Shown piece by piece: positions 13,157 through 64,000 of a DNA stretch of 64,000 nucleotides; the stretch's first letter is position 1; each line of letters opens with the position of its first letter. The translations under genes and the position numbers were made by a program. Location of the stretch: IMG/VR virus record IMGVR_UViG_3300020220_003261, one strand, 5' to 3'. The notes beneath the pieces are model-generated. The model had not been told where the DNA came from. It ran no database searches and saw only the letters and a list, made by a program, of their open reading frames with translations. The stretch is from a virus.

Positions 13157-15619
13157 ATGAAAATAAGAAGAAGTTCTGAAGATTTAAATTTTATTTTTAA
13201 TGGTGATACTTCATTCAAAGCAGACGCTGGATGGGAAGAAAATTTAAGAGACTTTGAAAAAGAAACTCTTACTTCAATTATTAATCCAGCTGAAAACTAT
13301 GAAACGGTAAGATATATTCATAAGGAATATAATTGTGGTAGTGGTATAACACAAAATGACATTTGGTTTTATTTTTATTTTTTAGATAACACAAATAATT
13401 ACACAAATGGATTAGACTATAGTTTAGTAGATATAACACCTAAAGAAAATGCACAAATGTTGGCGCAATCTACAAATAGTTTCTTTAGGTTAGAATTTTA
13501 TAAAACACCAAACAATACTCCACCTGATAGATCTAATAGAAAACTTGCTTTTGCTAAAAATCTTTCATTACCAAACGGTGAAAAATATTTTTATACAACT
13601 TTAAATGATTACATATTTGTTCCTGTATTCACTGGATCTAATTATAGAAACTCTGAAAACATGTATTTGTATTGGTTTCAGGATGATTCCGTTTTAGGTG
13701 ACACAACATTATCTGGTAACACATTTTGGATGACTGCTAGATTTTTTAATGCTAAAGATGGATCAATATCTAATTTTCATAATAGAGTATTAACACCAAA
13801 CCACGAATTTATTGAAGAAGAAGATTTTTATTATAGAGTAACATTTGATAAAAGTTTACACACTTATGAAATATGTTCATATAGTGGTAATACTTTATTT
13901 GGTCCATGTAATACTAATGATGTTAGAGGTAAAGTTTGTAACTCAGTCAATTTTTATCAAAGTTACACACCATCAACAACTACAATTCCACAAACAACGA
14001 GGACGCCCACACCAACAATTAGTGTAACCGCAACCCAAACAATTACACCAACACCAACTAGAACACCAACAAAAACGGCAACACAGACTCCTACACCAAC
14101 TCCAACAAGAACACCATTTTCTACCTTGACACCAACACCTTCAATTACTGCCTCTCCAACTACAACACCTACACCTACTCAAACATTAACGTCAACACCT
14201 ACGCCAACTCCAACTCCAACACCTACTCAAACATTAACACAAACAGTTACACCAACGCAAACACTTACACAGAGTGTAACGGCAACTTCTACGCCAACAC
14301 CAACACCTACGCAAACTGAAACAGCAACGCTAACTCCAACTCCAACACCAACGCAAACATTAACACAGAGTGTAACGGCAACTTCTACGCCAACTCCAAC
14401 ACCAACGCAAACACTTACACAGAGTGTAACGGCAACTTCTACGCCAACTCCAACACCTACGCAAACTGAAACACCTACACAAACACTTACACAGAGTGTA
14501 ACAGCAACGCCAACGCAAACTCCAACACCTACGCAAACTGAAACAGCAACGCTAACTCCAACTCCAACACCAACGCAAACACTTACACAGAGTGTAACGG
14601 CAACTTCTACGCCAACTCCAACACCTACGCAAACACTTACACAGAGTGTAACGGCAACTCCTACGCCAACTCCAACGCAAACACTTACACAGAGTGTAAC
14701 AGCAACGCCAACACCAACTCCAACACCTACTCAAACATTAACTCAAACAGTTACATCTACACCTACACCTACGCCAACGCAAACACTTACACAGAGTGTA
14801 ACAGCAACTTCTACGCCAACCCCAACGCCAACGCAAACATTAACACAGAGTGTAACGGCAACTTCTACGCCAACTCCAACGCAAACACTTACACAGAGTG
14901 TAACGTCAACTTCTACGCCAACCCCAACACCAACGCAAACATTAACTCAAACAGTTACATCTACACCTACACCTACACCAACGCAAACACTTACACAGAG
15001 TGTAACGGCAACTTCTACGCCAACACCAACACCTACGCAAACTGAAACACCAACGCAAACATTAACACAGAGTGTAACGGCAACTTCTACGCCAACTCCA
15101 ACGCCAACGCAAACATTAACACAGAGTGTAACGGCAACTTCTACGCCAACACCAACACCAACAAGAACTGTTACACCAACAAGAACTAATACGCCTACAC
15201 CAACACCAACAATAACTCCTACACCAACAAGAACTAATACGCCCACACCAACACCAACGCAAACATTAACTCCAACACAACCATGTAATTGTAAGTATCA
15301 TGACATATATGTAAATCAAAATGATATTGATGATTCTGATAATCAGGCAGTATACTTTGAATATTATGATTGTATAACTGGATTGCTTGAAACACAGACA
15401 AGAGGTGCAGCAGGAACGATTGAAGATGCATTCTGTCATAACATAAATGCGGGTAATACATCTGTATATTATATAAAGGACGGCAATAATGTGGCAGCTC
15501 AAAGTACCATAACAAATACATTTGTTGATTGTTGTCCCGGTTATTTTGATTGCGGATACGGATGTCAATATTATGAGGAAAATCCGGGATGTTCACCTTG
15601 TGATCCTTCTAGTCTCTAA
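13157..15619 (+). CDS. Putative virion protein with about 430 aa Pro/Thr mucin-like tandem repeat and Cys-rich C-terminal domain
   Basis: Globular N-terminus, then ([18 protein letters not shown])n, then a C-terminal domain with about 10 Cys. Confidence 0.8.
13970..15278 (+). repeat. In-frame tandem repeat, unit about 48-66 nt ([18 protein letters not shown])
   Basis: Near-identical DNA units such as acgcaaacacttacacagagtgtaacggcaacttctacgccaactccaacacc recur many times. Confidence 0.95.
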
Positions 15620-15630
15620 AAATTAATATA

Positions 15631-16767
15631 ATGAAAAATAAATATGAAATATTAAAAAAAACTATTACAAGTGGTTCACTTATATCTGAAATCAGTCAAA
15701 ATTGGTATGATTCTTTCGGTCAAGTAATTCCTTGGTCTGGTAGTGTTTATATTGGACCTAATCAAAACGATATAATATATAACACAAATGTTACAGGATC
15801 TTTAATTGAAGGATATTATAAATGGACTGGAACAACATGGAATTTAATAACATCGGGTTCAGCATACGATAACTACAACATACCAATATTTTTGACTGCG
15901 ACAAATGATGAAATGGGTGTTATGGTTGGTTTTGATGGAGATATCGAACAAGTAGAACAACTTGTAAATTTTTCATATTCAGGTGTTACAGGAACTTCTA
16001 CCGTTACGATTTATAATACAGTTAACACAGATAGATTAAGAACAATAACAGAGGCGACATATACAATAAATTGGGGGGATAATTCAACAGCTAATTTATC
16101 GATATCACCAACAGGACCTTTATCATCAGAAACAAAAACCTATATTAATTCTGGTGAATATAAAATTTCTGTTACCATGAGCACACCATGGACAACCAAT
16201 AAAGTTGAAAAAATTATTAAGATTCCATTTGACGCAACAGTTACAAATCATTTAGGAACATTTACAGGAACAACTGTACCAGCGTATTCTAATATGACTG
16301 GACAAAGCTTAAATTATTTAAATGACTATGATTACACAAATGTCACAGGAACAACAACAGGGTTCACTTATTTAGCAATAGGTAACAGCAGTTTGTCTCA
16401 AAAATTAAAATATGGTCAAAATCCTAATTTGATAATATCTTACAGTGGAGTTACAACTGGAACAGATACTATAGGAAACTATACAGGATATACGATTGGT
16501 GATTTATATTATAAAGATTATCCCAATAAATATACTATGATTACAGGGACTACTGTGGGAATTACAAAAGAAGAGGTTTTTAACCGTGTCTTAACAAGAA
16601 ATGAACATTTTTTAGGTTTTGTTGATGAACCTGTAATTTTTTCAGATGTTTTTGTGGAAAGAGGAAAACAATCTGTAATGGAAAAGAATCTAAGATTAAT
16701 TGAAATAGATAGTATGGGAGAACTTAGTATATATGGAAATGGATTTTATAATATCAGAAAACAATAA
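15631..16767 (+). CDS. Putative virion structural protein with PKD-like segment
   Basis: YTINWGD...KTYINSGEYKISVT resembles a PKD/Ig motif. Structural operon context. Confidence 0.65.
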   Translation: MKNKYEILKKTITSGSLISEISQNWYDSFGQVIPWSGSVYIGPNQNDIIYNTNVTGSLIEGYYKWTGTTWNLITSGSAYDNYNIPIFLTATNDEMGVMVGFDGDIEQVEQLVNFSYSGVTGTSTVTIYNTVNTDRLRTITEATYTINWGDNSTANLSISPTGPLSSETKTYINSGEYKISVTMSTPWTTNKVEKIIKIPFDATVTNHLGTFTGTTVPAYSNMTGQSLNYLNDYDYTNVTGTTTGFTYLAIGNSSLSQKLKYGQNPNLIISYSGVTTGTDTIGNYTGYTIGDLYYKDYPNKYTMITGTTVGITKEEVFNRVLTRNEHFLGFVDEPVIFSDVFVERGKQSVMEKNLRLIEIDSMGELSIYGNGFYNIRKQ

Positions 16768-16791
16768 AAATTATATTTATTAATAAAAGTT

Positions 16792-17712
16792 ATGGCAGTT
16801 GGAAGTTATGGTATAGTTAGACCGGCGGACGTTTCTCCAAATGACGTTGAGATTCTCTTACATTACGTTTCAGGTAGAACTGCAAATTCTCCTGTTACCT
16901 TAACAAAATTAGACGCAGGAGACATCTTAAGTCCAATTATACACAATGAAGATACCACAGATGACACTACTCAACAAAACATAGAGATCATTGGTGGTCT
17001 ATATAATTTGAAATTAGAATCATCTAATTTTTCGGAGTTGGGTATATATACTGTTCACATCAGACCAAAACAAATTAGAACAACTATAACGGATTGTGGA
17101 ATATTGGCATCTTTACCATCAGTAAGGGGTGTTATAATTGATTTAACAAATGTTCCATCTGAAGATAGGAATAAATTTACACCACAAGGTTTAGTGGGGT
17201 ATAGAATAGAATATATAAATAAAACAACAAAACAAAAAATACCTAATTTCTATAGAATAGTAACATCTAGCTTTTATTGTGTCCCAATCCAATCGAATTT
17301 AACAAATTCAATACAAAGAGCAATTAGATATCAATATTCAGATACCGCAAGTAACTTAATGTTTTTAACCGTAACACCATCATCCGCACCAACAAATAGA
17401 CCAAATACAGTTCCATTTATAGGAGAACCTTCACAAAAAATTATTTTAACTAATACTTTTTTCAACCCAACAACTATTGAAATAGAAATGGTCGAACATG
17501 ATTCTTCAACATTGGCACACGCTCTTTACGGTAATCAAAGTAAGGCAATATCTTCTGGTATCTACACAATTTATGACAATAACAACAATATCTACAAACA
17601 ATACAATCTTTACGAAATCAAAGATGAACTTAACGAAACATTATATGAGATACGTGAAGAAAAAACAGATATTGATGAAACATTAAATTTAGAAGATATT
17701 ACTAACGTATAA
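16792..17712 (+). CDS. Putative virion structural protein, 306 aa
   Basis: Preceded by TATTTAT at 16774 and coupled to the next gene. Confidence 0.7.
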
Positions 17713-20700
17713 TGGCAAAGAGAAAAGTTCCAAGTCAGGCGGCTAGTGGTGAAGAAACATTTAGTGATAGTTTAGTCGGTAGACAAATTACCGATGGATC
17801 AAGCTCTTTGACTAATACTGTCTTTAGTATTGATAGAACATTACCAGAAAAAGATAGTAAAAAATTTCAAACATCGCCATTCTCGGATTTTTTTTCTTTA
17901 AATGATTTGAAAGAAGAAAAAGATACACCATCATTGTTATCCGCTGAAGAAAAGAAAAAAAATATAAAATTCAGAAATGGTAAAGATGATGCCTCTAGAT
18001 CTTTGTATGGGTCATTAAGAAGTAGAATTGGAAATTCAATACAAAAAATTATAAAAAAATTTCCGGCCGGTGTTTTAGTAGACGCGACAACACCTGTAAG
18101 AACAAGTAACAATACAGCAAAAAATATAACTTACAGTCCAATATTGAAATCAACACAACTTGAAATTGATGTTTCAATGTTGTATAACACGTTTGGAATT
18201 GTTTTTAAAAAACCATCATCACCTGAAAAGGTAAATAAAGAAAATCCATTAAGAGATTTTTTTTCTTCTTATACAAAATATGTAATTGAAATAAGTGGAT
18301 CAACATATAATTTGGTTGGATACACAGAACCAAATTCATCAAATACTATTACTTTAAATGTATCTGGACAACCATTTACAGGATCAACATATTCTGAATC
18401 TTTTTTGATAAGACCAAACAATGGTACAATTGAAGAGTTTCATAATGGTCTTGATGATTTAGAAGAATTATTATTAGATAGACAAAGTAATCCAAAATAC
18501 GAAGCAAAGTTTAAAGTCCCAAAAGATAGTTTTGACGGATCCTCAACTGATATTGTAACAGTAGAAATTAACTGGCCAATTTCAAAAGATAATTGGAATC
18601 CACAAATTGTAGGATTAGACTACGAAGAATATCTAACAAAAATAAATTCTTTAGCAGAAGAAATTGACAATTATAAATCTAATTTAATATTAAGATTTTT
18701 AACTTCAGGTCAGTTATTTGAATATGATACTTTAGAAAAAAAAGGTGAAACAATTTTTCAATTGTATGGTCAATCTTTTGATAAAGTAAAAAAATATATT
18801 GATAACATTGCTTTAATGAGAAATGTTACATATGACGGAATAAATAATTTACCAGATATTTTACTAAAAAATCTTGCAAACACTTTAGGTTTAGATACAG
18901 TCAATCTATTTGATGAAAATAATTTAGAACAATCATTATATACAAGACACCAATCTAATTATTCTGGTATTACTACATCTTTTAATGTTGTTGATGCCGA
19001 ATATGAATTTTATAGAAGATTACTTGTTAACCTTGCCTTTATCTATAAATCAAAGGGGACAAGAACAGCAATAGAATTTTTCTTAAAATTTTTAGGGGCA
19101 CCCGAACCATTAATTAAAATTGATGAATATGTTTATAAAGTAAAAACATTACCGAAAAGTAATGATATAGAAGATGACATTTATGATGCAATACAAGGTA
19201 ATAAAATATCTTTTGTTGTTACAGGATTTACAGGAACAACATATTCGTATTTAACAGGAACAACAAGATCTTCTATAACTTATAATAGAGACAACTATCC
19301 AGTAGATGAAGATAGTGGATTACCAAAATCAACAACTAACACATCTGAAGATACATTCTTTCAGAAAGGTGCTGGTTGGTATGATGTGACATTATCTCAC
19401 AGAGCACAAATGGTTTTAGATGAGGAAAATTCAATAACTACTGGTAGATCAAGGACTACTGTAACTAAAATTAAACCTTATACTTACGGAGAAGATTATT
19501 TTGACTTGTATAGAACATTGCCAGGATTAGATACAGGATATGAATTATTAGGAAATATTGATAATTTTAAAGGGTCCGTAGATAATACAGAATCTTTATT
19601 CACACTAAACAGAAAAAATTTAAGTGTATATCTATCTTCAGCACAATCATTAGATTACGATATATACAGAAAATCAAGAGAATTAGAAGTTGTTATTGGT
19701 TTATTACCAATACAAACGGGTTTTACATTTAGTGAATTCTTAGATAGTGTTTATAATCAAGTAATTCATAATTCCAATGTCATTAGATTTAAACCTAATT
19801 ACATTCAATTAGAAGATTTATATTCAAAATATTTGTCATTGACAGGTGTAACTCATTATGATTACTTACTAACAAATGAGTTTATAGAAAAAATGTCACC
19901 GTATTGGGTTCAGATATTGGAACAAATGGTACCGGCAACTACGTTGTGGACTGGTGGTAATTTAATTGAAAATGGAAGAATAAAAAGATCAAAATACAAA
20001 TACACAAAACCGTGTCAAGTATTGGAAATTATTGATGATTTATATCCCGATTTTGTGCAACTTATAGGAGATGAACAAAATGATGGTGAAGTTGGTATAG
20101 GTGATGATGACCCCGATAAAGATGGTGTATTAAGAATATATCCAGCTTTTGAAATTAACGGTGTTTTATATTCAGGTGAGACAAACAATTTAAATCATTT
20201 TGTTCAAATTTTAGGAACATCAACAGTTTCAGGAGTTAGTGCAAGGTTATATAACCCTTCACCACCTTATGTTGTTGATCCCGATTATTCAGAAATTAGA
20301 ACACAATGGTCGGCAAAAACGATAAATGTTATTAATTATATAAATGCTAACTCAACAATTTTTATTGATTTGAGTGGAACAAGTAGTACGTATACAGGTT
20401 ACACAAGTCAATCTGGAATTACTACAGGAACAACAATGGTTCCTTACTTTACTTACGAGTTTTTCACTAACGACGCCAACCAAGAAAAAATTAAATTTAT
20501 TTCATCTAAATATGGATTTAATAAATGCACTGTGGATAAATTCAATTTCAAATATGTAACAATCGAATATAGTTCACCACCGCCAACACCAACACCTACA
20601 AGAACTCCTACGCCTACACCAACACCAACAAGAACTGTTACACCAACAAGAACTCTTACGCCTACACCAACACCAACAAGAACTGTTACACCAACAAGAT

Positions 20701-21602
20701 CTCTGACACCCACACCTACACCAACTAAAACATTAACATCAACTGTACCTTCAACAGCAACACCAACACCTACGCAAACTGAAACAGCAACACTAAATCC
20801 AACTCCAACACCAACACCTACACCAACAACAACTGATCCTGCAACAACCCCTACACCCACAGCTACACCAACTCCAACACCAACACCTACACCACCAACA
20901 GAGTATTGTATTCAGTATACTATAAATTATGATGTTAGCCAACCTGCATCGTCTTGTGGAACTGGATTATATGATAGTGTGGATGAGATTACAGTAACCT
21001 TGTACGATAGTCCTGGAGGTTCTCCAATTAATGCTACAGAAAATATCACCATACAATTTAGTGGAAGTGAAATGATGGATTGTTCAGGATATCCTTTCAC
21101 TGTATACCCTGTATCTGTTGTAATTAATTCGGGATCATCAAGTGGTTTTTCAACATACACACAAAGTGGTTATAGAATATGTGAACAAGATTCACTTTGT
21201 AAGGCTTTCTCTATAAATGATTTAACAATATATAGTATTACACCTTCTTCATATGAGGTTTGTGTAATTCCGACATTAACTCCTACCCCTACGCCAACTC
21301 CAACACCTACACCGAGTTGTGTGTGTCATAGTATGACATATAATGATGGACAATTGCCGGGTGATTTATATGTAAGATACCGTTCTTGTGGTAGTGGAGT
21401 TGTAACGGAATTGATAAGTGAACTTTTAACAGATGATAATGGAGATGGAACATATACCGCACATATTTGTGTTGATGTGACCGGAAGTTATAATAATCCT
21501 ATTTGTGTTCAAGATGGTAATGAAGTATTATGTCCAAACGGTCTTTCATGGTCATCATCTTTACAAAACTGTAGTAGCCCATTTGATTGTAATGTAAGTT
21601 AA
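17712..21602 (+). CDS. Baseplate wedge protein (gp7 / P2 gpI-like core) with C-terminal Pro/Thr repeats and Cys-rich domains
   Basis: [10 protein letters not shown]...[19 protein letters not shown] is the gp7/tail-protein-I signature. PT tracts lie at about 20575-20897 and 21272-21313. Confidence 0.75.
20575..20897 (+). repeat. In-frame Pro/Thr low-complexity repeat
   Basis: [26 protein letters not shown]... The [14 protein letters not shown] unit is also present at about 15150-15240. Confidence 0.93.
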
Positions 21603-46661: not shown

Positions 46662-46673
46662 TTGAAAATAAAG

Positions 46674-46681
46674 TATTTATA
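46674..46681 (+). promoter_or_regulatory. TATTTATA putative late promoter
   Basis: Intergenic, upstream of fibre gene 46711. Confidence 0.6.
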
Positions 46682-46710
46682 GATAATAAAATAAGACTAT
46701 AATTTAGAAA

Positions 46711-48849: not shown

Positions 48850-48875
48850 AAAGGGAGAAATTTATTTCTCCCTTT
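48850..48875 (+). terminator. Intrinsic terminator-like hairpin
   Basis: Perfect 11-bp stem AAAGGGAGAAA/TTTCTCCCTTT with TTTA loop after the 46711 gene. Confidence 0.8.
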
Positions 48876-54200: not shown

Positions 54201-54686
54201 AGTAGTGGAACATCTGGTTCATCTGGTACGTCAGGAACGGCCGGTACTTCAGGATTATTAACACTAACAGGTTCAACTAATAATGGTGTTATAACATATG
54301 ACGGAAGTGGAACAAATGCTACTGTTGAGTCTAACATAACCTTTAGTGGTTCAACACTATCATTGACAGGTGACTTGTTATTAAATGGTAAGGTAGATGT
54401 TCGTACAAGTAATCAATCTGTAAGTACTAGTACAACAATGTTCACATTATCAGAATATAACGGTGTGGTTCTTGATTACTTAGTAAAGAGTGGTTCTAAT
54501 ATGAGAGCGGGTAGTATAGTTGGTATATGGAATGGTTCAACATCTAATTTGACTGAAACCACAACAACTGACTTAGGTAATACAACAGCGATTTCATTCA
54601 CTATATCTAATAGTGGCACGGTTACTGTAACATCATCTTCAGGAACTTGGAGTGTAGTTATGTTCGCAAGAGCACTATCTATATAA
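51282..54686 (+). CDS. Tail fibre protein with about 700 aa of Gly-Ser/Thr-Ser/Thr tracts
   Basis: N-terminal MANQFIVKNGL, three tracts separated by small globular modules, C-terminal domain paralogous to that of 48975. Confidence 0.8.
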   Translation: MANQFIVKNGLIVDQGGLNVTGSSQISGSLGITGSLNVSGSQNIIGNLVVGGNLSANQFIVSSSVSHITTSFSSGSTKFGDSLDDTHQFTGSFSVTGSLSINGTEYLAATSGTSGTSGSSGTSGSSGSSGTAGTSGTSGTSGSSGSSGTSGSSGTSGTSGTSGSSGTSGSSGTSGTSGSSGSSGSSGSSGSSGTSGSSGSSGTSGTSGSSGTSGSSGTSGTSGSSGTSGTSGTSGSSGTSGSSGTSGSSGSSGSSGSSGTSGSSGTSGTSGTSGSSGTSGSSGTSGTSGSSGSSGSSGTSGSNGSSGTSGTSGTSGSSGSSGSSGTSGTSGSSGTSGSSGSSGSSGTSGTSGTSGSSGSSGSSGTSGTSGSSGSSGSSGTAGTSGTSGVDGASGTSGTSGSSGTSGTSGTSGSSGSNGSSGTSGTSGTAGTSGSSGSSGSSGTSGTAGTSGTSGSSGTSEVYKTTSATSHTLGQGGSLTVPSGLSYSVGQSIIIAYDVNHYQESDVVSYSGTTLTFTAPDANGTVGSGTYSSWTINLDGATGADGTSGTSGSSGTSGTSGSSGSSGSSGTAGTSGTSGSSGSSGSSGTSGTSGTSGTSGSSGSSGSSGTSGTSGTSGTSGSSGSSGSSGTAGTSGSSGTSGSSGTSGTSGSSGTSGTSGTSGSSGSSGSSGTSGTSGSSGSSGSSGTSGTSGTSGSSGTSGSSGSTTVGAYNSLTVNSPSTTWAFQHDLGARYPVVQVYDTEGFAIIPQSIKAIDLYNIEIGFSSPQAGLVAVTLGEGGGGSSGTSGTSGSSGSSGTSGTSGSSGTSGSSGSSGTSGSSGSSGTSGTSGTSGSSGTAGTSGTSGSSGTSGSSGTSGSSGTSGSSGSSGSSGTSGSSGSSGSSGTSGTSGTSGSSGTSGSSGSSGSSGTSGTSGSSGTSGSSGTSGSSGSSGTSGTSGSSGTSGTSGSSGTSGTSGSSGTSGTSGTSGSSGSSGSSGTSGSSGTSGTAGTSGLLTLTGSTNNGVITYDGSGTNATVESNITFSGSTLSLTGDLLLNGKVDVRTSNQSVSTSTTMFTLSEYNGVVLDYLVKSGSNMRAGSIVGIWNGSTSNLTETTTTDLGNTTAISFTISNSGTVTVTSSSGTWSVVMFARALSI
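51610..54252 (+). repeat. In-frame (G-S/T-S/T)n tracts at about 51610-52657, 52910-53397 and 53610-54252
   Basis: Gly at every third residue with X/Y almost only Ser or Thr. Synonymous codons are diversified. Confidence 0.95.
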
Positions 54687-54806: not shown

Positions 54807-56975
54807 ATGGCAAACGAATTTAAAGTCAAAAATGGCCTGATTGTATCAGGCTCGGCGGATATAATAGGAGATTTAAATATTAAAGGTAATATTGTTGCTC
54901 AACAATATATTATATCCTCTTCAGTAATTTACCAAACCGCGTCTTTTGTTAGTGGTTCTAACAAATTCGGTAATTCAAGTGATGATACTCATGACTTTAC
55001 AGGTTCATTAAAAGTTAGTGGTAGTTTAGTTTTAAATGATGTAATATTTGTTGCATCTTCATCTGGTACATCTGGTACTTCAGGATCAAGTGGTAGTTCG
55101 GGTTCTAGTGGTACATCAGGAACATCTGGTTCTAGTGGTACTTCAGGTAGTAGTGGAACATCAGGTTCAAGTGGATCATCAGGTTCTTCAGGTTCTAGTG
55201 GTACTTCAGGTTCTTCGGGAACAAGTGGAACATCTGGTTCATCAGGAACATCAGGTAGTTCGGGAAGTAGTGGTACATCAGGAAGTAGTGGTTCTAGTGG
55301 TTCTTCAGGTACTTCAGGTACATCAGGCAGTTCAGGAACATCTGGTTCATCAGGATTAAGTGGGTCATCGGGAACATCTGGCACAAGTGGTTCTTCAGGA
55401 AGTTCGGGTTCATCAGGTAGTTCAGGTAGTTCAGGTTCATCGGGGACATCGGGGTTAAGTGGTACTTCAGGTACATCCGGTTCAAGTGGAACAAGCGGTA
55501 GTTCTGGTTCAAGTGGTTCTTCTGGTTCATCTGGTACAAGTGGTAGCTCAGGTATCTCGGGTTCATCGGGAACATCTGGTAATAGTGGTAGCTCGGGTAC
55601 CAGTGGTACTTCAGGTTCGTCAGGAAGTTCGGGTTCTTCGGGTAATTCAGGAAGTAGTGGAACAAGCGGTAGTAGTGGAACATCTGGTACTAGCGGTTCT
55701 TCAGGAAGTTCAGGTAGCTCTGGTTCAAGTGGAAGTAGTGGTTCTAGTGGTTCTTCTGGTTCATCTGGTACAAGTGGAGCTAATGGTTCATCAGGAACAT
55801 CAGGGTCCAGTGGAAGTAGTGGTTCAAGTGGAAGTAGTGGAACAAGTGGAAGTAGTGGTAGTTCTGGTTCATCAGGAACCTCAGGAAGTAGTGGTACATC
55901 GGGAACTTCAGGAAGTAGTGGAACGAGTGGAACATCTGGCTCTTCAGGAACTAGTGGTAGTAGTGGTAGTAGTGGAAGTAGTGGAAGTAGTGGTTCATCG
56001 GGAACATCAGGTTCTAGTGGTTCTTCAGGTTCATCGGGAACATCAGGTTCTAGTGGTTCTTCAGGTTCTTCAGGTTCATCAGGTTCTAGTGGTTCATCTG
56101 GTACTTCGGGAACATCAGGTAGTTCAGGTTCATCTGGCTCAAGTGGAACATCAGGATCTTCGGGGTCGAGCGGAAGTTCTGGATCATCAGGTTCAAGCGG
56201 GTCAAGTGGTAGTTCGGGAAGTAGTGGTACTGTAACACTTAGTGGTACCTTAGATAATGGTATATTAACCCTTAATGGTTCATCACCAAACGTAACTGTT
56301 GAATCAAATGCAAGATTCACAGGAACATTAATGTCGGTTACGGGTTCCGTTGAAATATATAAATCAGGGTCAATTGTATTGGACGTTCAGGGTTCATTAG
56401 GTCAATTGTTTTCCGTAACAGACAGTTTAACAGGAGATATATTTTCAGTATCTGATCAATCGGGTATTCCTATATTAAATGTAAACGCTAGTGGTAGTGT
56501 TCAAATAGACGGTCAATTAACTGTAAGTGGGACAACAACATATTTGACAGGTGCCCTTGGTGTCGGAACAAATACACCAACAACTGTTGGTTTAATTAGA
56601 GCAACAAACGATGTAATTGCCTTTTATGGGTCAGACGAACGATTGAAAACAAATGTTGAACCAATAAGGGGTTCTTTAGATAAACTATCTCAAATAAATG
56701 GTTACGAATTTGATTGGATAGAAATGAAAGGTATTCACGAAAATGAGGGTCATGATATTGGTGTGATAGCACAAGAAATTGAAAAGGTTTTACCTGAAAT
56801 TGTAACAACTAGAGATAATGGGTATAAGGCTGTTAAATATGAAAAACTTGTTGCACTTTTAATAGAAACAAACAAAGAATTACTAAAACAGATTGAAAAT
56901 ATTAATAATAATAATCATAAATTATTAAAACGTATTGAAACGTTAGAACAAAAAATTAAGTATGGGGATTTTTAG
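54807..56975 (+). CDS. Distal tail fibre protein with G-S/T-S/T tract and C-terminal intramolecular chaperone (peptidase S74)
   Basis: MANEFKVKNGL N-terminus; SDERLKTNV...GYEFDW...IGVIAQEIEKVLPEIV...VKYEKLVALLIE S74 domain. Confidence 0.88.
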   Translation: MANEFKVKNGLIVSGSADIIGDLNIKGNIVAQQYIISSSVIYQTASFVSGSNKFGNSSDDTHDFTGSLKVSGSLVLNDVIFVASSSGTSGTSGSSGSSGSSGTSGTSGSSGTSGSSGTSGSSGSSGSSGSSGTSGSSGTSGTSGSSGTSGSSGSSGTSGSSGSSGSSGTSGTSGSSGTSGSSGLSGSSGTSGTSGSSGSSGSSGSSGSSGSSGTSGLSGTSGTSGSSGTSGSSGSSGSSGSSGTSGSSGISGSSGTSGNSGSSGTSGTSGSSGSSGSSGNSGSSGTSGSSGTSGTSGSSGSSGSSGSSGSSGSSGSSGSSGTSGANGSSGTSGSSGSSGSSGSSGTSGSSGSSGSSGTSGSSGTSGTSGSSGTSGTSGSSGTSGSSGSSGSSGSSGSSGTSGSSGSSGSSGTSGSSGSSGSSGSSGSSGSSGTSGTSGSSGSSGSSGTSGSSGSSGSSGSSGSSGSSGSSGSSGTVTLSGTLDNGILTLNGSSPNVTVESNARFTGTLMSVTGSVEIYKSGSIVLDVQGSLGQLFSVTDSLTGDIFSVSDQSGIPILNVNASGSVQIDGQLTVSGTTTYLTGALGVGTNTPTTVGLIRATNDVIAFYGSDERLKTNVEPIRGSLDKLSQINGYEFDWIEMKGIHENEGHDIGVIAQEIEKVLPEIVTTRDNGYKAVKYEKLVALLIETNKELLKQIENINNNNHKLLKRIETLEQKIKYGDF
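55056..56230 (+). repeat. In-frame (G-S/T-S/T)n tract, about 390 aa
   Basis: Continuous SGTSGSSG... with rare L, I, N or A substitutions at non-Gly positions. Confidence 0.95.
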
Positions 56976-57606
56976 AGGACCCAATATTGTTAAAGATGGT
57001 TTAGTTATGATTGTGGATGCGGGTTCATATAGATCATATCCCGGTTCGGGATCAACGTGGTTTGATTTATCTAAAAACGGACACAATATTTCATTGGGTA
57101 GTTCAGTTACTTTCTCAAGTGATTTTGGTGGTGTTTTGAGATTTGCCGAAAACGGAAACGGATATGGTAGAAATACTTCTATGAATATGTCAAGTACAAA
57201 CTATACTGTGATTTCATATGTAAGAAAAATGAGTAATGGAAATGATGGTAGAACGATAACCGCGTATAATAATAATTGGTTATTAGCACATCATGATAAT
57301 ACATATGGTGATTATTATGCAGAAGGATGGGTAAATGATATTACATCCCCAACGTCTGATACTACTTGGAGAATGTTTACCGGAACAGGAAATATTTCAG
57401 GAGATGTATATCAATTATATATTAATGATTCACTAAGCGTGTCAAATAGTAATGGATCACAGGGTCCTAATGGTTGGAATTTAAATAATCAATACGGACA
57501 ATATTCTGATTGTCAAATAGCAAATTTAATTGTTTATAATAGAGTTTTATCTTCATCAGAAATATCTCAAATATATAATGCAACAAAAAAAAGATTTGGA
57601 ATATGA
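56962..57606 (+). CDS. LamG/concanavalin A-like lectin-fold protein (candidate fibre-tip adhesin)
   Basis: GPNIVKDGLVMIVDAG..SYPGSGSTWFDLS...IANLIVYNRVLSSSEISQIYNA. Confidence 0.8.
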   Translation: MGIFRGPNIVKDGLVMIVDAGSYRSYPGSGSTWFDLSKNGHNISLGSSVTFSSDFGGVLRFAENGNGYGRNTSMNMSSTNYTVISYVRKMSNGNDGRTITAYNNNWLLAHHDNTYGDYYAEGWVNDITSPTSDTTWRMFTGTGNISGDVYQLYINDSLSVSNSNGSQGPNGWNLNNQYGQYSDCQIANLIVYNRVLSSSEISQIYNATKKRFGI

Positions 57607-57815
57607 AAACTGAAGAATATTATATTGGAGAAATTAAAGTAATTAAGATTATTAATGATGAGGAAGACCTATCGACAGAAGAAGATAGAAATTATTGGCT
57701 ATCTATATGTGAATCTTGTAAAAAATATAATGAAGGAAGGTGTGGTGAATGTGGTTGTATTGTATTAAGTATGATGTCACTCAAGGAATCTAAATGTCCA
57801 ATAAATAAATGGTAG
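57603..57815 (+). CDS. Small Cys-rich protein (DUF6171-like)
   Basis: CESC...CGECGC...KCPINKW. Confidence 0.7.
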   Translation: MKTEEYYIGEIKVIKIINDEEDLSTEEDRNYWLSICESCKKYNEGRCGECGCIVLSMMSLKESKCPINKW

Positions 57816-57816
57816 T

Positions 57817-58383
57817 ATGGGAGTATATACTGTAAACTCTACAATAATAAAAGAAAACGACATTTACGGAATTACGTTATATAATTGCACAATTATAAAT
57901 TCCGAAACCGGTAATTATGGTCCGTATGGTGGATATCAAATTAAAGTTTCACATGATACTTCTGGATGTGGAAACCCAGGTAGTAACTTCTATGTAGAAA
58001 TAAAGAGTAGTGTGGTTGGTAAATATTTAAGTTGTGAGTTTGAAATGACAGGAGTTGCTTCTTGTTGGGGATTTAATGACGGTGGATACTCTGGAACAGA
58101 TGGTAATTTACTTTCATATAATGAATCAAGTGGTGATATTATACCAAATTACAGATCTTTAAATTCTTGGGAAAAAACACAATTTCAAACTCACAGTAAA
58201 ATAAGTGCATGCGACAACGACTCAAATAATTTTTTTCATAGTGGTTATCACACCGGCAACCCCAAAATATTTTTAATGAGAAGAAGAAGAAATAATTTAA
58301 ATTCAAATTTCGGTCCAGCACATGGAAGATCGTGTAATAACACTGGTGTACATACAATAATAAGAAATATAAGAGTTTGGTAA
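57817..58383 (+). CDS. hypothetical Cys-containing protein in fibre-tip cassette
   Basis: Intact ORF with SGCG, SCWGF, ACDN and GRSC motifs. Confidence 0.75.
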   Translation: MGVYTVNSTIIKENDIYGITLYNCTIINSETGNYGPYGGYQIKVSHDTSGCGNPGSNFYVEIKSSVVGKYLSCEFEMTGVASCWGFNDGGYSGTDGNLLSYNESSGDIIPNYRSLNSWEKTQFQTHSKISACDNDSNNFFHSGYHTGNPKIFLMRRRRNNLNSNFGPAHGRSCNNTGVHTIIRNIRVW

Positions 58384-59910
58384 ATGAAAATTGGACCTAA
58401 TATATCACAGAATGGAATAGTATTCGGCATCAATGTCGGTAATAGTAGATATTATCCAGGTGAACCCACAACCAATTTATTAGATAATGCATCCACAAAT
58501 GCTATACCTCTTTTAGGTAATGCTTGGGGAACATATAACACGAATCAATATGGAAGTGGAACATATTTTTCAATTGGTTCTGTTAGTAGTGTGTCAAATA
58601 ATATAGTAACAATGACATCGTCACACGGACTTAGAACCTATGATGTGATGCAACCACAAACAACAGGAGGAGGTGTTACGGCTGGTACTAACTATTTTAT
58701 AAAAAAAGTAAGTAATACTCAATTTTCTTTACATTCTTATAATAGTAGTCAGGATGGTTCACAAGGATATATAAATCCATCCACAGGAACACACAAGGTT
58801 CATGATAGTATTGCAACGGATAGTAAAATATCTATTAGTTCAGAAAATTTTCCAACAATGTGGTGGGGTTACCCACATTTACCAAATTCAGGTTTAGTTA
58901 AAGAATGGATTCCAAATGGATTTACAAATCCATCTGATGGATTTATATCTGATTGTATAAGACAACACATAACGAGAGCTGATGGACCTGATCATATGGC
59001 TTATGGTGCAAATGCGTCATTCACATCAAATTCTCCCGTTTATTGTTCATTTTATGCTAGATCGGTTGATTCTAATGCAGTCGGTAAATCTTGTACATTT
59101 TATCATTACACTTATGGTGTTCAGTCTGCAACTGCATATTCTATGGGATTTACATTAGGTGCAGTGGGTGTTTGGGAAAGATTTGGATATACTTGGACAT
59201 CACCTAATAATACAGCAATTTCTTATTGGTTTAATCCGGGTGGACCATACAAATATGATATTGCAAATATTCAAATTGAACAAAAAAATCACCCAACAAG
59301 ATTCACAACAGGAACTAGATCGACAACACAAAGTCTTATTGATGTTGCAAGAGGTGGTTCTATTGATGTTGCCAATGTGTCATTTGATTCAAATGGTCAA
59401 ATCACATTTGATGGGACGAACGATTATATTGATTTTTTTGCTCCATCATTAGGTGGTACCGCAACAATTGAAATGGTTGCAAAAATTGGTTCAGGATATA
59501 GTGGAAAAATGTTTTTTGGTTGGAATACTTATGATGTGTGGTGTGGTGGTGGTCATTTAGGATATAACACTGGCAATGGTGATGTTTATGGAATTTCATC
59601 TTCATCAGTTTCAAGTTTAGGATTAGTTAGTAATTGGAAACATTATGTTTTTGAAATGAGAACTGATGTTTCCTATACAAATAATAAAATATATATTAAT
59701 GGTGTGCAACAATCATTATCGCAACAACAAAGTAGTGAGGGTTCAAAAAGCTTTAATAGTGGTAATGGAAGAATAGCGGTTTGGAAACATGATTTAAATT
59801 ATTGTATGCCTATGGATTGTCATGTATTTAGAGTTTATAATAGAGCTCTTTCACAAGAAGAAATAACCCAAAATTATGTTTCTTACAAAGGAAGATTTGG
59901 AATTTCATAA
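58384..59910 (+). CDS. LamG-fold protein with inserted carbohydrate-binding-like domains
   Basis: N-terminal GPNISQNGIVF and C-terminal FDGTNDYI...NWKHYV...FRVYNRALSQEEITQNY flank a large insertion. Confidence 0.78.
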   Translation: MKIGPNISQNGIVFGINVGNSRYYPGEPTTNLLDNASTNAIPLLGNAWGTYNTNQYGSGTYFSIGSVSSVSNNIVTMTSSHGLRTYDVMQPQTTGGGVTAGTNYFIKKVSNTQFSLHSYNSSQDGSQGYINPSTGTHKVHDSIATDSKISISSENFPTMWWGYPHLPNSGLVKEWIPNGFTNPSDGFISDCIRQHITRADGPDHMAYGANASFTSNSPVYCSFYARSVDSNAVGKSCTFYHYTYGVQSATAYSMGFTLGAVGVWERFGYTWTSPNNTAISYWFNPGGPYKYDIANIQIEQKNHPTRFTTGTRSTTQSLIDVARGGSIDVANVSFDSNGQITFDGTNDYIDFFAPSLGGTATIEMVAKIGSGYSGKMFFGWNTYDVWCGGGHLGYNTGNGDVYGISSSSVSSLGLVSNWKHYVFEMRTDVSYTNNKIYINGVQQSLSQQQSSEGSKSFNSGNGRIAVWKHDLNYCMPMDCHVFRVYNRALSQEEITQNYVSYKGRFGIS

Positions 59911-59922: not shown

Positions 59923-60041
59923 ATGTTTGAAAATAGAAGGTGATTAAGTATGATAAAATAGTAGCATTATTAATTGAAACAAATAAAGAATTATTAAAGA
60001 GAATTGAAGATTTAGAAAAAGTAATAAAAAAACACAAATGA
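59923..60041 (+). pseudogene. Deletion scar: 6-codon gene start fused out of frame to an S74 chaperone C-terminal remnant
   Basis: ATG 59923 gives MFENRR*. Frame 59940-60041 gives VIKYDKIVALLIETNKELLKRIEDLEK, paralogous to the end of the 54807 protein. Confidence 0.7.
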
Positions 60042-60691
60042 GTTATTTGATTGCTAATATACCACCAATAGAAGTTTATGTAGATAAAAGGTTTCTTTAC
60101 GATTTTCAAACCGATAAAGATGGTAAATTATTGGGCGATAAGGAATGGGAAAAGGGTCATTGGGTAAGTGTTAAATCAATTATAAATCGAGCACTCCTTT
60201 TTGAAACCTATATTGACAAGTTTGGTGCTGTATATGATAAGCTACCGATTCATGCATTTCGTTGGAGACATAAAAAATCAAATGATAAGGAGTTTCCTTT
60301 AGATTTTTTACAACTTTGGGATTGTCTATCATATAACATATCAGTTATAGAAAAAAGGGTTCTAACGGGTGTCAAAACCTTTACAACAATGAAGGATCAT
60401 AGTGTTGTTGAGGGTGAATATCTTTTTACAATTGATACCGCACATTCAGAACCAAATGAAGTGGATTGTGGATGGAGTGAAACACCAAATGAGCATAAAT
60501 GTTATAACATATCTAAATTGGAAAACGGTCAATTTTGTGCACAACCAAATAATAGAACTCGTTGGTATCAACCTTCTCGAACCGAATCAATAAATGAAAT
60601 TCCGTATTTTAGATACTCTACTAAAATATGGAGATGTGAAGATAATAGTAAATGGAGACCTTCTGATTCTAAATGGGATTATACATTTTGA
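60038..60691 (+). CDS. Conserved phage hypothetical protein, 217 aa
   Basis: MSYLIANIPP...YLFTID...EHKC....LENGQFCAQPNNR is a pattern I recognise from aquatic phages. Function unknown. Confidence 0.75.
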   Translation: MSYLIANIPPIEVYVDKRFLYDFQTDKDGKLLGDKEWEKGHWVSVKSIINRALLFETYIDKFGAVYDKLPIHAFRWRHKKSNDKEFPLDFLQLWDCLSYNISVIEKRVLTGVKTFTTMKDHSVVEGEYLFTIDTAHSEPNEVDCGWSETPNEHKCYNISKLENGQFCAQPNNRTRWYQPSRTESINEIPYFRYSTKIWRCEDNSKWRPSDSKWDYTF

Positions 60692-60797
60692 ATGCACATA
60701 TTCAATGATTTTATCTTTACTCGAAACACCAATATGGAAAAAATAAACAAACTTTTACAAAATGTAAAAATTGTTTATATTTTATTAATTAATTAAA

Positions 60798-61538
60798 ATG
60801 AATAATATTGCTTTTGGTATCTTTTGTTTTGGAGACCATTATTATTTTGAAGGATCTATACACAAAATAAAAAGATTATTAGAAGATGGATATTCTTGCT
60901 ATGTTCTAACAGATAATATAGAATATTTTAACAAATATTATTCTACAAATTATTTAAAACTAATTCCATATAAAAAAGAAATTAAATCATATCATGACAA
61001 AATGTTATTACCAAAATATATTTTGGATAATCATGATATCTGTATTTTAATCGATGCAGATTTAGAAGTATTCGATTATTCTTTTTTAAAAAAAATTAAA
61101 ACATTCGATTTTAAACACGGAATATCCTTTGTTGAAACACTATCAAAACACCCGAGCAAGTTGGAAACCATTTCAAATATTGATATGACAACAAATGAGT
61201 GGAAATTTTATAAAGATTATATCAAAAATTTAAATGTAGATATATCAAATGAAAATACAATGTGGGAATATTTTTTAGTTATTAATAAAAAAGGTTTTAA
61301 CCAAAAAGATTTTTACAAACACTATGAAAAATTACAAATAGTTAAAGATTTTTGTAACATAGATGGTAAAAAAGAAATATCTGGTATGGGTGAAGGTGTT
61401 TCTATTCTAATATCATCTTTATTATCAAACACAAAATTGACTTTGGATGAAAATTTGTTTAAATTAATCCAAAATAAGGTGGTTAGTATTAGTAGAAAAT
61501 TTACTAATCCTGATTTTTTACCTGATTGGATGAAATGA
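60798..61538 (+). CDS. Putative GT-A fold glycosyltransferase
   Basis: CYVLTDN, YHDK, ILIDADL (DxD), GMGEG late motif. Confidence 0.6.
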   Translation: MNNIAFGIFCFGDHYYFEGSIHKIKRLLEDGYSCYVLTDNIEYFNKYYSTNYLKLIPYKKEIKSYHDKMLLPKYILDNHDICILIDADLEVFDYSFLKKIKTFDFKHGISFVETLSKHPSKLETISNIDMTTNEWKFYKDYIKNLNVDISNENTMWEYFLVINKKGFNQKDFYKHYEKLQIVKDFCNIDGKKEISGMGEGVSILISSLLSNTKLTLDENLFKLIQNKVVSISRKFTNPDFLPDWMK

Positions 61539-62263
61539 TCTTAAACGAAGAATATTTAAAAAAATTTATTACAAATAATAATGATAAACCTGTTCCTTAT
61601 AGGTGGACACACGGTGCAACCGATTTACATTTAGGAGATGGATTAATAGTTTACTCATTAATACAGATGATGAGGTTTAAAACTTGTGTTTGTATAGGAT
61701 CTGGTGGTGGATTCATACCTCGCCTGATGACACAAGCTAGATTAGATTTACATAAACAAGAAATATTCGAAGGAAATTCAGATTATAATTGGGGTGATAT
61801 TGGCGTCACATATGTTGTCGATGCGTGTAATGGTATTGGTGGACCAACAGATATAGAAGATGAAAATTCATTTTTTAGAAGAACTTTTTGGCCAAGGTTT
61901 ATAAAATCAACATCTGTTGATGCGTATCATGATTTTTTTGTTAGGCAAGATATTAAAATTGATTTACTTTTTTTAGATGGTGACCATACGTATGAGGGTA
62001 TTAAAAATGATTTTAATTTATATTCATCATTATTAACAAATAATGGAATTATTGTTATACACGATACTGATAAAAATTATGAAAAAACTTTGATTGTATC
62101 TGAAGATGCAAAAAAAGATTATCACAAATTCGATGGGCCTTCAAAATTTGTTGAAGAATTACAACAAAGTAAAGAGTGGAACTTGATTAATCTTTTTAAT
62201 TTTTGTATATTATCAACAAAACCAACCTCATCAGGAATTACAATTATTAATAGAAAAAAATGA
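61535..62263 (+). CDS. Class I SAM-dependent methyltransferase (Methyltransf_24-like)
   Basis: VCIGSGGGF, DLLFLDGDHTYEGIKNDF, GIIVIHD. ATG 61535 is preferred as the start. Confidence 0.8.
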   Translation: MILNEEYLKKFITNNNDKPVPYRWTHGATDLHLGDGLIVYSLIQMMRFKTCVCIGSGGGFIPRLMTQARLDLHKQEIFEGNSDYNWGDIGVTYVVDACNGIGGPTDIEDENSFFRRTFWPRFIKSTSVDAYHDFFVRQDIKIDLLFLDGDHTYEGIKNDFNLYSSLLTNNGIIVIHDTDKNYEKTLIVSEDAKKDYHKFDGPSKFVEELQQSKEWNLINLFNFCILSTKPTSSGITIINRKK

Positions 62264-63111
62264 TTAGATTAATATCTGTTATTGGTCACGGAATTGATTT
62301 AATACCACATTTCGTAAAACATTATTCAAAATATGTTGAGGAGATCCAATTTGTTGTATATCAATCATCAATTCATCCAAATTTGATTCAAAATGTAAAA
62401 GATAAAGTCAAACAATATAAAAACGTAAAGATTGTAAAAACTATTGAGGACAGAGTATTTGATTGGGAAAAAGTTACACAATTATACAATTTCATTAAAT
62501 CAAAAAATCCACATGATTGGTGGGTGGTTGCTGATATTGATGAATTTCATTTATATCCAAATAATAATTTAAAGCAATGTATATCAGATTGTGAGGATAA
62601 CGGATGGGAAATAATAAGAGGTGGTTTTATAGATAGGATTGGACCGAATGGAGAATTTTCAGTTTTAAATATGAATGAAGAAATATTTTCACAATATCCA
62701 AATGCGGGTTTTTTTAGATATCGTTTAAGTAAAGCCAATCCAAATAAGGTTTGTGTTATGAAGGGGTCTATTGAAATTACATCTGGACAACATTATGCAA
62801 AAATAGATAATCAAACAACTTGGAAATGGCAAGGATGGAATCACCCATTAATTAATCCTAAAGACCACGTACAAGTTCACCATTTCAAATGGGATTCCAC
62901 ATCGATAGAAAGAATTAAAACAGTTGCAGATAATAATCAAGATTATTCCTATTCGAATGAGTACGGAATTATGTACAATTCATTAAGAAAAAATAAGTTT
63001 TGTATTAACATAGAAGACCCCTTGTTTTTATTCAAAAAAAATTGTATATTAGGTAATTATGGGGAGTACTCCAAATGGAATAATTTAATTAATAAAATAA
63101 AATCAATATGA
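62260..63111 (+). CDS. Glycosyltransferase family 2/92-like
   Basis: LIPHFVKHY, WWVVADIDEF (DxDE), KVCV, HFKW. Confidence 0.75.
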   Translation: MIRLISVIGHGIDLIPHFVKHYSKYVEEIQFVVYQSSIHPNLIQNVKDKVKQYKNVKIVKTIEDRVFDWEKVTQLYNFIKSKNPHDWWVVADIDEFHLYPNNNLKQCISDCEDNGWEIIRGGFIDRIGPNGEFSVLNMNEEIFSQYPNAGFFRYRLSKANPNKVCVMKGSIEITSGQHYAKIDNQTTWKWQGWNHPLINPKDHVQVHHFKWDSTSIERIKTVADNNQDYSYSNEYGIMYNSLRKNKFCINIEDPLFLFKKNCILGNYGEYSKWNNLINKIKSI

Positions 63112-63356
63112 CACAAATTAAAAAAACTAATGGTAAAGATGACGAATTATTGATTCTTGAACAAAGAAAAGTTAAAGCACTGGAAAAAATTTCAAATTCT
63201 TTAGACGCACTTACTGTGTGGGTTGAAGAAATTGATAAAGAGGAGTGGGGTAACAGAATACAATTCTATTTAGCAGAGTTTCATAACAAAATCGTAAAAG
63301 AAATTGTATTCAAAGATGGTCAAGAGGTAAAAATATCCAATAAGAAAATAAAATAA
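63108..63356 (+). CDS. hypothetical protein, 82 aa
   Basis: Coupled ORF (ATGA and TAATG overlaps) inside the GT cluster. Confidence 0.7.
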   Translation: MTQIKKTNGKDDELLILEQRKVKALEKISNSLDALTVWVEEIDKEEWGNRIQFYLAEFHNKIVKEIVFKDGQEVKISNKKIK

Positions 63357-64000
63357 TGAGTCATAAACTTGGTATAATCGTACCATATAGAGACCGTTAT
63401 AAACAACTTGTTCGATTTAAAGTATCATTAAAAAATTGGTTATCGAAATTTGATATTGACTATGAAATAATTGTAGTTGAACAAGATGACGGGCTAGCGT
63501 TCAATAGAGGAAAACTATTGAACGTTGGTTTTTTATATTCCAAAAAGTTAAAATGTGACTACGTTATTTTTCACGATGTTGACATGTTACCTTATGATGT
63601 TGATTATTCATATTGTGATATACCATTACACATGGCAACTGATTTCATAACGACAGGTGGATTCAAAAGAATAGTATTTGATGAATATTTTGGGGGAGTT
63701 ACACTTTTTCCAGTGGACATGTTCGAACTTGTAAATGGTTACTCAAACAAATATTGGGGATGGGGTTATGAAGACACCGAACTTTTACATAGATGCAAAT
63801 TGTCTAAAATTCCATTAGACACAAAAGAAATCAGTCTAAAAGGTGGTAATGTGGCATCTCTAAGATTTAATGGTGTAGACGCATATATTGAGGGAAACAA
63901 CATATTCGATTTCAAATATAAAAATACAATTTTTATTAGTTTCAATCCCGATGAATTAACATTAAATCATGAAAAAGATGATGATGTGTTTGCGTCTTTT
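63356..64000 (+). CDS. GT7 (beta-1,4-galactosyltransferase-like) glycosyltransferase fused to a probable LamG domain, 3'-truncated (not in ORF track)
   Basis: Manual translation: IIVPYRDR, VVEQDD..AFNRGKLLNVGF, FHDVDMLP, YFGGV, VNGYSNKYWGWGYEDTEL, then SLRFNGVDAYIE. Confidence 0.88.
   Translation, partial: MSHKLGIIVPYRDRYKQLVRFKVSLKNWLSKFDIDYEIIVVEQDDGLAFNRGKLLNVGFLYSKKLKCDYVIFHDVDMLPYDVDYSYCDIPLHMATDFITTGGFKRIVFDEYFGGVTLFPVDMFELVNGYSNKYWGWGYEDTELLHRCKLSKIPLDTKEISLKGGNVASLRFNGVDAYIEGNNIFDFKYKNTIFISFNPDELTLNHEKDDDVFASF

Follow-up and report, generated by a model that had tools for sequence, protein, structure and literature searches.

Glycosylation of virions by enzymes that the virus itself encodes is established for a few mycobacteriophages and for some giant viruses; in the large phages that abound in lakes it is essentially unexplored. 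A candidate system of this kind is described here from a 64,000-nucleotide stretch of virus DNA (IMG/VR record IMGVR_UViG_3300020220_003261; the whole stretch is referred to as the window), in which three genes for Ser/Thr-rich collagen-like fibres are followed by an operon of glycosyltransferase (GT) genes ending in a GT7 enzyme. Mimivirus, with its fibrils and collagen-like proteins, and the chlorovirus PBCV-1 possess their own cytoplasmic glycosylation machinery, independent of the host, and carry rare methylated sugars on surface fibres; these are viruses of eukaryotes, and their enzymes are not known to be related to those of the phage. In the Bacillus cereus group, the exosporium protein BclA has a collagen-like Gly-X-Thr stalk that is heavily O-glycosylated, with the glycan genes nearby. 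Its repeats are proline-rich (GPT) and its enzymes are others, whereas the phage stalks are free of proline.

In the TibC-TibA and Aah-AIDA-I systems of Escherichia coli (BAHT family), a soluble enzyme of the cytoplasm attaches sugars to many Ser residues of a repetitive adhesin, whose gene lies next to that of the enzyme (PMC4358343). The phage homologue of TibC, which keeps Asp110 and the four iron-finger Cys, differs in its fusion with a GT4 domain (about 700-1000 aa) and in being encoded outside the window; the substrate is a beta-helix autotransporter in E. coli and presumably a collagen-type Gly-X-Y fibre here. In mycobacteriophages, phage GT and methyltransferase genes near structural genes have been proposed or shown to glycosylate virion proteins (Freeman et al. 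2023, as cited in PMC12619734). The glycans there, according to the same citing source, are on the capsid and on tail-tube C-termini and involve 1-4 GTs, whereas the candidate acceptors in the present phage are fibres and the gene island covers tens of kb and includes a sugar-nucleotide pathway; co-variation with the proposed acceptors, expected of a system of the mycobacteriophage type, is not shown by the GT7 module. Animal B4GALT7 and B4GALT1 (CAZy GT7) provide the best structural and sequence match to the GT7 of the window and share with it the DVD metal motif and the WGWG-ED motif. The phage enzyme differs by a lectin-like insert of ~250 aa and by the lack of a membrane anchor, and neither a xylosyltransferase partner (among the scanned open reading frames, ORFs) nor Ser-Gly dipeptide sites with acidic neighbours were found. 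The in-window system fits none of the TibC-TibA/Aah-AIDA-I, mycobacteriophage, giant-virus and BclA families.

The reading favoured here, with a probability of about 0.5, is a composite one, in which O-glycosylation of the fibres would be primed by a TibC-like/GT4 fusion, the GT7 module would act on a cytoplasmic acceptor, and the Pro/Thr tracts of two further proteins would be linkers. A preliminary description of the window had proposed that the phage O-glycosylates all of these tracts by means of the GT7/GT2/methyltransferase cluster. The proposal gains support for the Ser/Thr-rich fibres, with which the TibC-like/GT4 fusion co-varies, and loses it for the cluster, which does not co-vary, and for the Pro/Thr tracts, which are linked to no transferase. 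That the enzyme tracking the tracts is a TibC-type protein heptosyltransferase and not the GT7 cluster redirects the search.

Collagen-like fibres and the TibC-type enzyme

The window covers the tail fibres and glycan genes of a phage from an abundant uncultured lineage of freshwater myoviruses with genomes of 200-335 kb, since IMG/VR has hundreds of close relatives (75-80% identity), on contigs that reach 336 kb and come mostly from lake metagenomes, and deposited phages are distant. All large ORFs of the window, including every gene described below, are on the + strand, and the GC content is 26-31% outside repeats.

Collagen-like fibre proteins are encoded by three genes. The first (48975..51194, 739 aa) has 192 aa of Gly-(S/T)-S tracts (Pfam Collagen E 1.7e-24), the second (51282..54686, 1134 aa) has 732 aa in three tracts with globular domains between them (E 1.1e-97, 8 stretches), and the third (54807..56975, 722 aa) has 390 aa (E 2.8e-56) and ends in a Peptidase_S74 intramolecular chaperone (E 1.1e-18). 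Uninterrupted Gly-X-Y sequence amounts to 1,314 aa over the three fibres, in agreement with the extent first reported, and consists of ~63% Ser+Thr and 0% Pro. Scores against PF01391 (Collagen) were 320, 188 and 86 bits with a cut-off of 27.2, and the E-values given above exclude a chance origin of the tracts. The DNA repeats beneath the Gly-X-Y regions are only 62-85% identical, which indicates that the triplet periodicity is maintained at the protein level. On sequence grounds, the triplets are proline-free collagen-type Gly-X-Y repeats in which X and Y are Ser or Thr. The earlier term "serglycin-like" is therefore withdrawn, as Gly occurs at every third residue and not in Ser-Gly dipeptides. 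A serglycin/glycosaminoglycan-type acceptor was considered and rejected, because the tract period is 3 and not 2, acidic residues are absent and no xylosyltransferase was seen in the window or among the ORFs scanned in stretches of the relatives L001 and G020.

Proline and charged residues are the usual stabilisers of the collagen triple helix. The phage tracts contain neither Pro/hydroxyproline nor the charged pairs of bacterial collagens, charged residues of any kind being nearly absent. The Peptidase_S74 chaperone, present on one of the three proteins, is typical of trimeric fibres, and in every relative, collagen-free ones included, the S74 part is conserved at a position immediately upstream of the GT module.

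A degenerate DNA pattern for (GTS/GSS)n was found in viral contigs of widely differing size, at least 120 in number. Among these are five near-complete phage genomes of other lineages; GT7 is present in none of the five, and in four a single ORF of ~700 aa with Glycos_transf_1 and Glyco_transf_9 domains stands beside the collagen-like gene or genes. It is located 616 bp from the collagen-like gene in G044 (66 kb), 1.3 kb from it in G061 (249 kb), 39 bp downstream of three collagen-like ORFs in G055 (170 kb) and 86 bp from a collagen-like ORF of 5,316 aa in G043 (299 kb). In G063 (98% complete, short tract) none of the GT7 N-domain, GT2, GT2_4 and GT1 families was matched. The C-terminal half of the fusion ORF is a close homologue of TibC (E 2.9e-57 in G061 and 2.8e-52 in G020, a relative of the window). 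The catalytic Asp110 and all four iron-finger Cys of TibC (PMC4358343) are kept in the G020 copy, in which the LGD, CxxC and C...C elements align.

Within the lineage of the window, the TibC-like half was detected in 5/6 collagen-positive records (G002, G004, G016, G020 and G025) and in 0/12 collagen-negative ones (Fisher p about 7e-4, phylogeny uncorrected). Each time the gene is immediately upstream of a collagen-like fibre gene bearing S74, so that the fusion adjoins an S/T collagen-like gene, at roughly 50-1,300 bp, in nine phage genomes in total, four of other lineages and five of this one. On the tree of the GT7 proteins, one gain and one joint loss (in G030) of tracts and TibC-like enzyme are seen. 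The TibC-like gene lies ~45-47 kb downstream of GT7 in G004 and G002, and in G020 it is part of a 12-kb block (L214:3010-14105; G020 283-294 kb) missing from collagen-free genomes. Further genes of this block are another TibC-like one and those for a radical S-adenosylmethionine (SAM) protein, a methyltransferase of the FkbM type fused to GT4, and a Methyltransf_24 protein. A 2-oxoglutarate-Fe(II) oxygenase of the prolyl-4-hydroxylase type is encoded there as well, though the collagen-like tracts are without proline or lysine.

The GT7 module

The GT cluster first reported is real, and it is separated from the fibre genes, which it was said to follow directly, by ~3.8 kb with four non-GT genes. 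The operon opens with a GT-A-fold glycosyltransferase candidate of 246 aa, GT6/GT8/UGGT-like (60798..61538), followed by a Methyltransf_24 SAM-dependent methyltransferase of 245 aa that resembles sugar O-methyltransferases (61526..62263; E 3.4e-11, with a weak RMNT_CmcI match) and by a GT2_4-type GT-A glycosyltransferase of 283 aa (62260..63111; Glyco_tranf_2_4 27.7 bits, barely above the cut-off of 27.5). An ORF of 82 aa (63108..63356), whose start and stop overlap both neighbours and which has a counterpart of 80-84 aa at the equivalent place in L001 and L005, precedes the GT7 gene (beta-1,4-galactosyltransferase-like; 63356..64000, cut by the window end), of which the first 215 of 473 aa are present (GT7 N domain E 8e-21, C domain E 1.5e-16). 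Between 60798 and 64000, neighbouring genes overlap or abut on one strand, and no terminator-like hairpin was found in any intergenic gap between the last fibre gene and the end of the window. No hydrophobic or membrane segment was detected in any GT, all of which are soluble.

The protein at 60798..61538 was identified by fold search alone, as it had no Pfam match and as sequence and profile searches of the 60038, 60798 and 62260 proteins against the PDB returned nothing. It has an invariant D-A-D motif, and its AlphaFold model (pLDDT 87, pTM 0.87) matched GT6 blood-group transferases, BoGT6a and UGGT in Foldseek at E ~1e-6, with TM values of only 0.4-0.5. In the GT2_4-type protein an invariant D-x-D and an HHFKW motif were recognised by alignment of 22 homologues.

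The complete architecture of the GT7 was deduced from the relative L001, whose protein is 94% identical over the 215 aa of the window and has a full length of 473 aa with a Laminin_G_3 domain included. In the AlphaFold model (pLDDT 88) the first ~155 aa match B4GALT7 and B4GALT1 with 34-36% identity (Foldseek E 1e-13 to B4GALT7), and residues ~155-410 are predicted to form a ConA/pentraxin-like sandwich inserted in the catalytic domain ahead of its C-terminal elements. In the metal motif HDVD, H73, D74 and D76 are invariant, and the WGWG-ED motif is present. The Glyco_transf_7N/7C domains, the D-x-D motif and the GT-A fold are those of CAZy GT7; the contiguous catalytic domain with an N-terminal membrane anchor is replaced by one carrying the lectin-like insert and preceded by no hydrophobic segment. 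A lectin domain inside a catalytic domain is an unusual enzyme architecture, common to more than 2,000 metagenomic proteins and found in none of 50,697 deposited phage records. Both tandem GT7 proteins (63356-64000 and beyond; L001:6829-9674) have the ConA/LamG/pentraxin-like insert of ~250 aa, which sits beside the position of the acceptor- and donor-covering loop of B4GALT enzymes. By BLASTP, the insert has no similarity to the LamG-like virion proteins of the window.

Beyond the window end, L001 continues with the second GT7 (475 aa), two twitch-domain radical SAM proteins (NF033640, E 1e-93 and 1e-85) and a piece of a DegT-type aminotransferase. The G020 island extends further, with genes for SDR epimerase/dehydratases, an RmlC-like epimerase, a two-subunit thiamine diphosphate enzyme and a carbamoyltransferase.

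The composition of the module was examined in 80 GT7 loci. Both GT7 genes were present in all 80, GT2_4 in 68, the methyltransferase in 66 and the two radical SAM genes in 63 and 62, and the GT-A candidate of the 60798 type in 25/80; the module is always downstream of an S74-chaperone fibre gene. Co-variation of the tracts with the cluster, a check suggested in the preliminary description, gave a negative answer, as the tandem GT7 pair occurs in 7/7 near-complete relatives and a collagen match in only 2/7 (G002 and G020, and not G001, G010, G021, G024 or G030), and as tracts are found without GT7 in 5/5 of the near-complete genomes of other lineages. For the module, half of what that description had named as refuting evidence was thus observed. 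Whole-genome scans gave 0 aa of Gly-X-Y and 0 aa of Pro/Thr tract for G001 (complete, with terminal repeats), 0 and 45 aa for G024 (complete), 0 and 1,656 aa for G030, and 2,067 and 1,456 aa for G020. The tract-bearing genomes form one late subclade of the tree of the two GT7 proteins, and the module therefore predates the tracts. Thus, the methyltransferase-GT2-GT7-GT7-radical-SAM module is a core feature of this jumbo-phage lineage, older than the tracts and independent of them.

Bacterial GT7-like homologues, which are without the lectin insert, were found in Azospirillum and other Proteobacteria. In Azospirillum brasilense (L446:5581-10777) the GT7-like gene comes directly after a gene for a TPR-GT41 protein (protein O-GlcNAc-transferase-like) and is near a GT10 fucosyltransferase gene. 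Such a GT41/GT10/GT7-like set could build a Lewis-x-like glycan on protein, and the gene order is a hint that GT7-like enzymes can extend protein-linked sugars.

Pro/Thr tracts and the proposed mechanism

Long Pro/Thr tracts occur in two proteins termed baseplate-block, a label given by synteny with gp25-like and gp6-like genes alone. As read from its translation, the first (13157..15619, 820 aa) is made of a conserved N-domain of ~270 aa, a Thr/Pro stalk of ~435 aa (about 13967-15271) and a Cys-rich tip of 115 aa; the second (17712..21602, 1296 aa) has a conserved body of ~950 aa, a Pro/Thr linker of 130 aa (about 20583-20966), a Cys-containing middle module, a short PT linker and a Cys-rich tip. 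The tracts measure 448 and 132 aa, 580 aa together, and confirm the sizes first estimated. The N-domain of the first protein was recovered from 21 related loci, mostly as a stand-alone protein of ~280 aa, and its stalk and Cys-rich tip had no match in them; likewise, the N-part of the second is 51-58% identical in relatives, in which its C-terminal modules had no match. The Pro/Thr DNA of the first gene consists of repeats of 204-222 bp with 88-94% identity, which points to recent expansion. Across relatives the tracts are sporadic and of variable length, and most relatives have the N-domain of ~270 aa only, without stalk or tip; for these reasons the Pro/Thr tracts are taken to behave as linkers that hold out accessory Cys-rich tip domains. 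The two tract types evolve independently, as G030 lacks collagen-like tracts and has 1,656 aa of Pro/Thr.

G030 is the closest whole-genome relative and has lost all collagen-like tracts together with the TibC-like gene; in its 188-202 kb region (L190-L191) it carries a protein of 2,708 aa with 873 aa of Pro/Thr tract. The Cys-rich modules of ~65-130 aa that come after the Pro/Thr linkers of the window (15272-15619; 20967-21602), the first and last of which start with CxC...Y.Y..C..G, have no counterpart in any related baseplate locus and look like recently acquired tip or adhesin domains.

From the observed anatomy, homologies, synteny and co-variation we infer the enzymatic steps, acceptors and sugars that follow. 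The collagen-like fibres would receive O-linked sugars on Ser/Thr while in the cytoplasm, ahead of assembly or in its course, and the most likely initiating enzyme would be the TibC-type heptosyltransferase-GT4 fusion, whose gene would stand next to that of a fourth collagen-like fibre outside the window. The balance tips slightly towards the fibres being glycosylated at all. The GT7 island, with its GT-A enzyme, O-methyltransferase, GT2-like enzyme, two lectin-insert GT7 proteins, radical SAM proteins and sugar-nucleotide enzymes, would represent a soluble cytoplasmic glycan-building set. Its in-window part would most likely build or extend a methylated glycan on a conserved cytoplasmic acceptor, for which the fibre or other virion proteins are the leading candidate, although the odds are somewhat against action of the in-window module on virion proteins; in tract-bearing phages it may additionally extend the fibre glycans. 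A cytoplasmic acceptor would fit with the absence of any undecaprenyl-phosphate (Und-P) priming transferase and Wzx flippase from five near-complete genomes. A bolder version, which appears doubtful, is that a private cytoplasmic factory of 30-45 kb makes bottle-brush fibres, with the TibC-type enzyme priming hundreds of serines, the GT7 pair, GT2 and GT-A enzymes extending the chains, methyl and carbamoyl groups capping them, and the sugars replacing hydroxyproline in stabilising the triple helix.

Several observations weigh against the composite reading. GT7 enzymes use sugar acceptors and not peptides, and the GT7 module persists in complete tract-free genomes, so that these tracts are not its conserved target. 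The TibC-like gene had no tblastn match in the 64-kb window, and its presence in the genome of this phage is predicted from synteny in relatives; its co-variation with the tracts within the lineage corresponds to about two evolutionary events. Among the best 80 viral TibC-like loci, an S/T collagen-like ORF lies within 10 kb in 31 (39%, a figure without formal control from random viral contigs) and within 500 bp in 10. The Pro/Thr tracts have no link to any transferase, and no initiating enzyme was found for them. The first 215 aa of the GT7 gave no tblastn match at E <= 1e-5 in the deposited phage records, and the phage has no cultured relative. The module could, alternatively, decorate host lipid-linked glycans by way of the host's own export machinery.

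This last possibility leads to a wider explanation, by which the GT7/GT2/methyltransferase/radical-SAM island remodels an envelope glycan of the host (lipopolysaccharide, capsule or surface glycoprotein) during infection, for instance to block superinfection or to prevent re-adsorption of progeny to debris, the tracts being unrelated and the adjacency to fibre genes no more than conserved gene order. The independence of the lineage-core module from the tracts would be accounted for in this way, and so would the Proteobacterial homologues, Azospirillum included; one source labels a homologue "glycosyltransferase involved in capsule biosynthesis", and serotype-changing phage GTs are well known in general and also cited in PMC12619734. 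A self-contained surface-polysaccharide pathway is unlikely, because the five near-complete genomes lack the Und-P priming transferase and Wzx flippase and because all the GTs are soluble. Moreover, fibre genes flank the island on either side in tract-bearing genomes, and no terminator-like hairpin was found in the gaps between the genes that follow the last fibre gene, as far as the end of the window. Overall, remodelling of the host envelope is considered unlikely.

The tracts might instead be purely structural and carry no sugar, the Gly-X-Y regions forming collagen-like triple helices or flexible spacers, the Pro/Thr regions extended linkers, and the transferases acting elsewhere. Collagen-like segments are indeed frequent in prophage tail fibres (PMC3368898), and Pro/Thr linkers and Gly-X-Y stalks are likened to those of many phage fibres and cellulases. 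The Pro/Thr tracts appear as recent, length-variable insertions tethering tip domains, G063 bears a short tract with none of the searched GT families, and 61% of the 80 best viral TibC-like loci are without a collagen-like neighbour. Against this stand the TibC-type protein glycosyltransferase beside collagen-like genes in nine genomes, with coupled gain and loss, and the lack of the usual helix stabilisers in stalks that have neither proline nor charged residues, so that an entirely unglycosylated state is held to be quite improbable. Hypermodification of the phage DNA, or synthesis of a small-molecule glycoside, with radical SAM, aminotransferase, methyltransferase and GT reactions as in the thymidine/hydroxymethyl-pyrimidine hypermodification pathways, is suggested by the co-occurrence of radical SAM enzymes, a DegT-type aminotransferase and GTs, and the DNA-glycosylating GTs of viruses form a diverse set (Pyle et al. 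2024, as cited in PMC12619734). Nevertheless, the thymidylate-synthase/hydroxymethylase family is absent from two complete module-bearing genomes (G020 and G024), the module stands among late structural genes, and the RmlC, SDR and carbamoyltransferase genes point to nucleotide-sugar chemistry; a role in DNA modification is accordingly regarded as very improbable.

If the fibres are glycosylated as the composite reading has it, views on host recognition, fibre mechanics and protease or immune shielding of lake phages would change, and the stalks would be a natural example of a sugar-stabilised, proline-free collagen.

Genome context and neighbouring genes

The fibre cassette is headed by genes for two fibre-associated structural proteins (45894..48828; 255 and 705 aa, PHROG structural-protein matches), and terminator-like hairpins are located at 48850 and 54705. 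Between the fibres and the GT operon there are three small virion-type proteins (56962..59910; 214, 188 and 508 aa) with PHROG virion structural protein matches, the first of which is weakly LamG/ConA-like (Laminin_G_3 E 9e-4, below the cut-off), and a protein of 217 aa (60038..60691) matching PHROG 3704, labelled "ferredoxin" (E 1.5e-72). The latter has a homologue in 0/80 related GT7 loci and no Pfam, NCBIfam or PDB match; its gene is outside the conserved module and looks like an inserted moron.

Other PHROG matches in the window are a DnaB-like helicase, a ribonucleotide reductase, gp25-like and gp6-like baseplate wedge proteins, a primase, SbcCD, a head protease and a sigma factor. Among deposited phages, those that come nearest (Flavobacterium phage immuto, Microcystis phage Mel-JY01 and an uncultured phage of 484 kb) are only 27-29% identical in the gp6-like protein. 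Four core GT groups and characteristic heat-shock genes are given for the "moraphages", a group of aquatic jumbo phages, in PMC12619734; identity with this group was not established, HSP70 being absent from five near-complete genomes of the lineage.

Boxes of the type (A)TATTTAT(A) occur 20-70 nt upstream of many structural genes (5197, 16773, 21616, 24430, 31589, 46674, 48903, 51239 and 54752) and recall the late promoters of T4, with none before the GT operon; they were dropped as evidence for a late-promoter box because no statistical enrichment was found in this AT-rich DNA.

Hints on the host conflict, as full-length GT7 homologues with the lectin domain are on contigs binned into metagenome-assembled genomes of Pelagibacterales and of Flavobacteriaceae/Flavobacteriales (L432-L435). 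These, one of which is 248 kb long, are probably contigs of jumbo phages mis-binned with bacteria.

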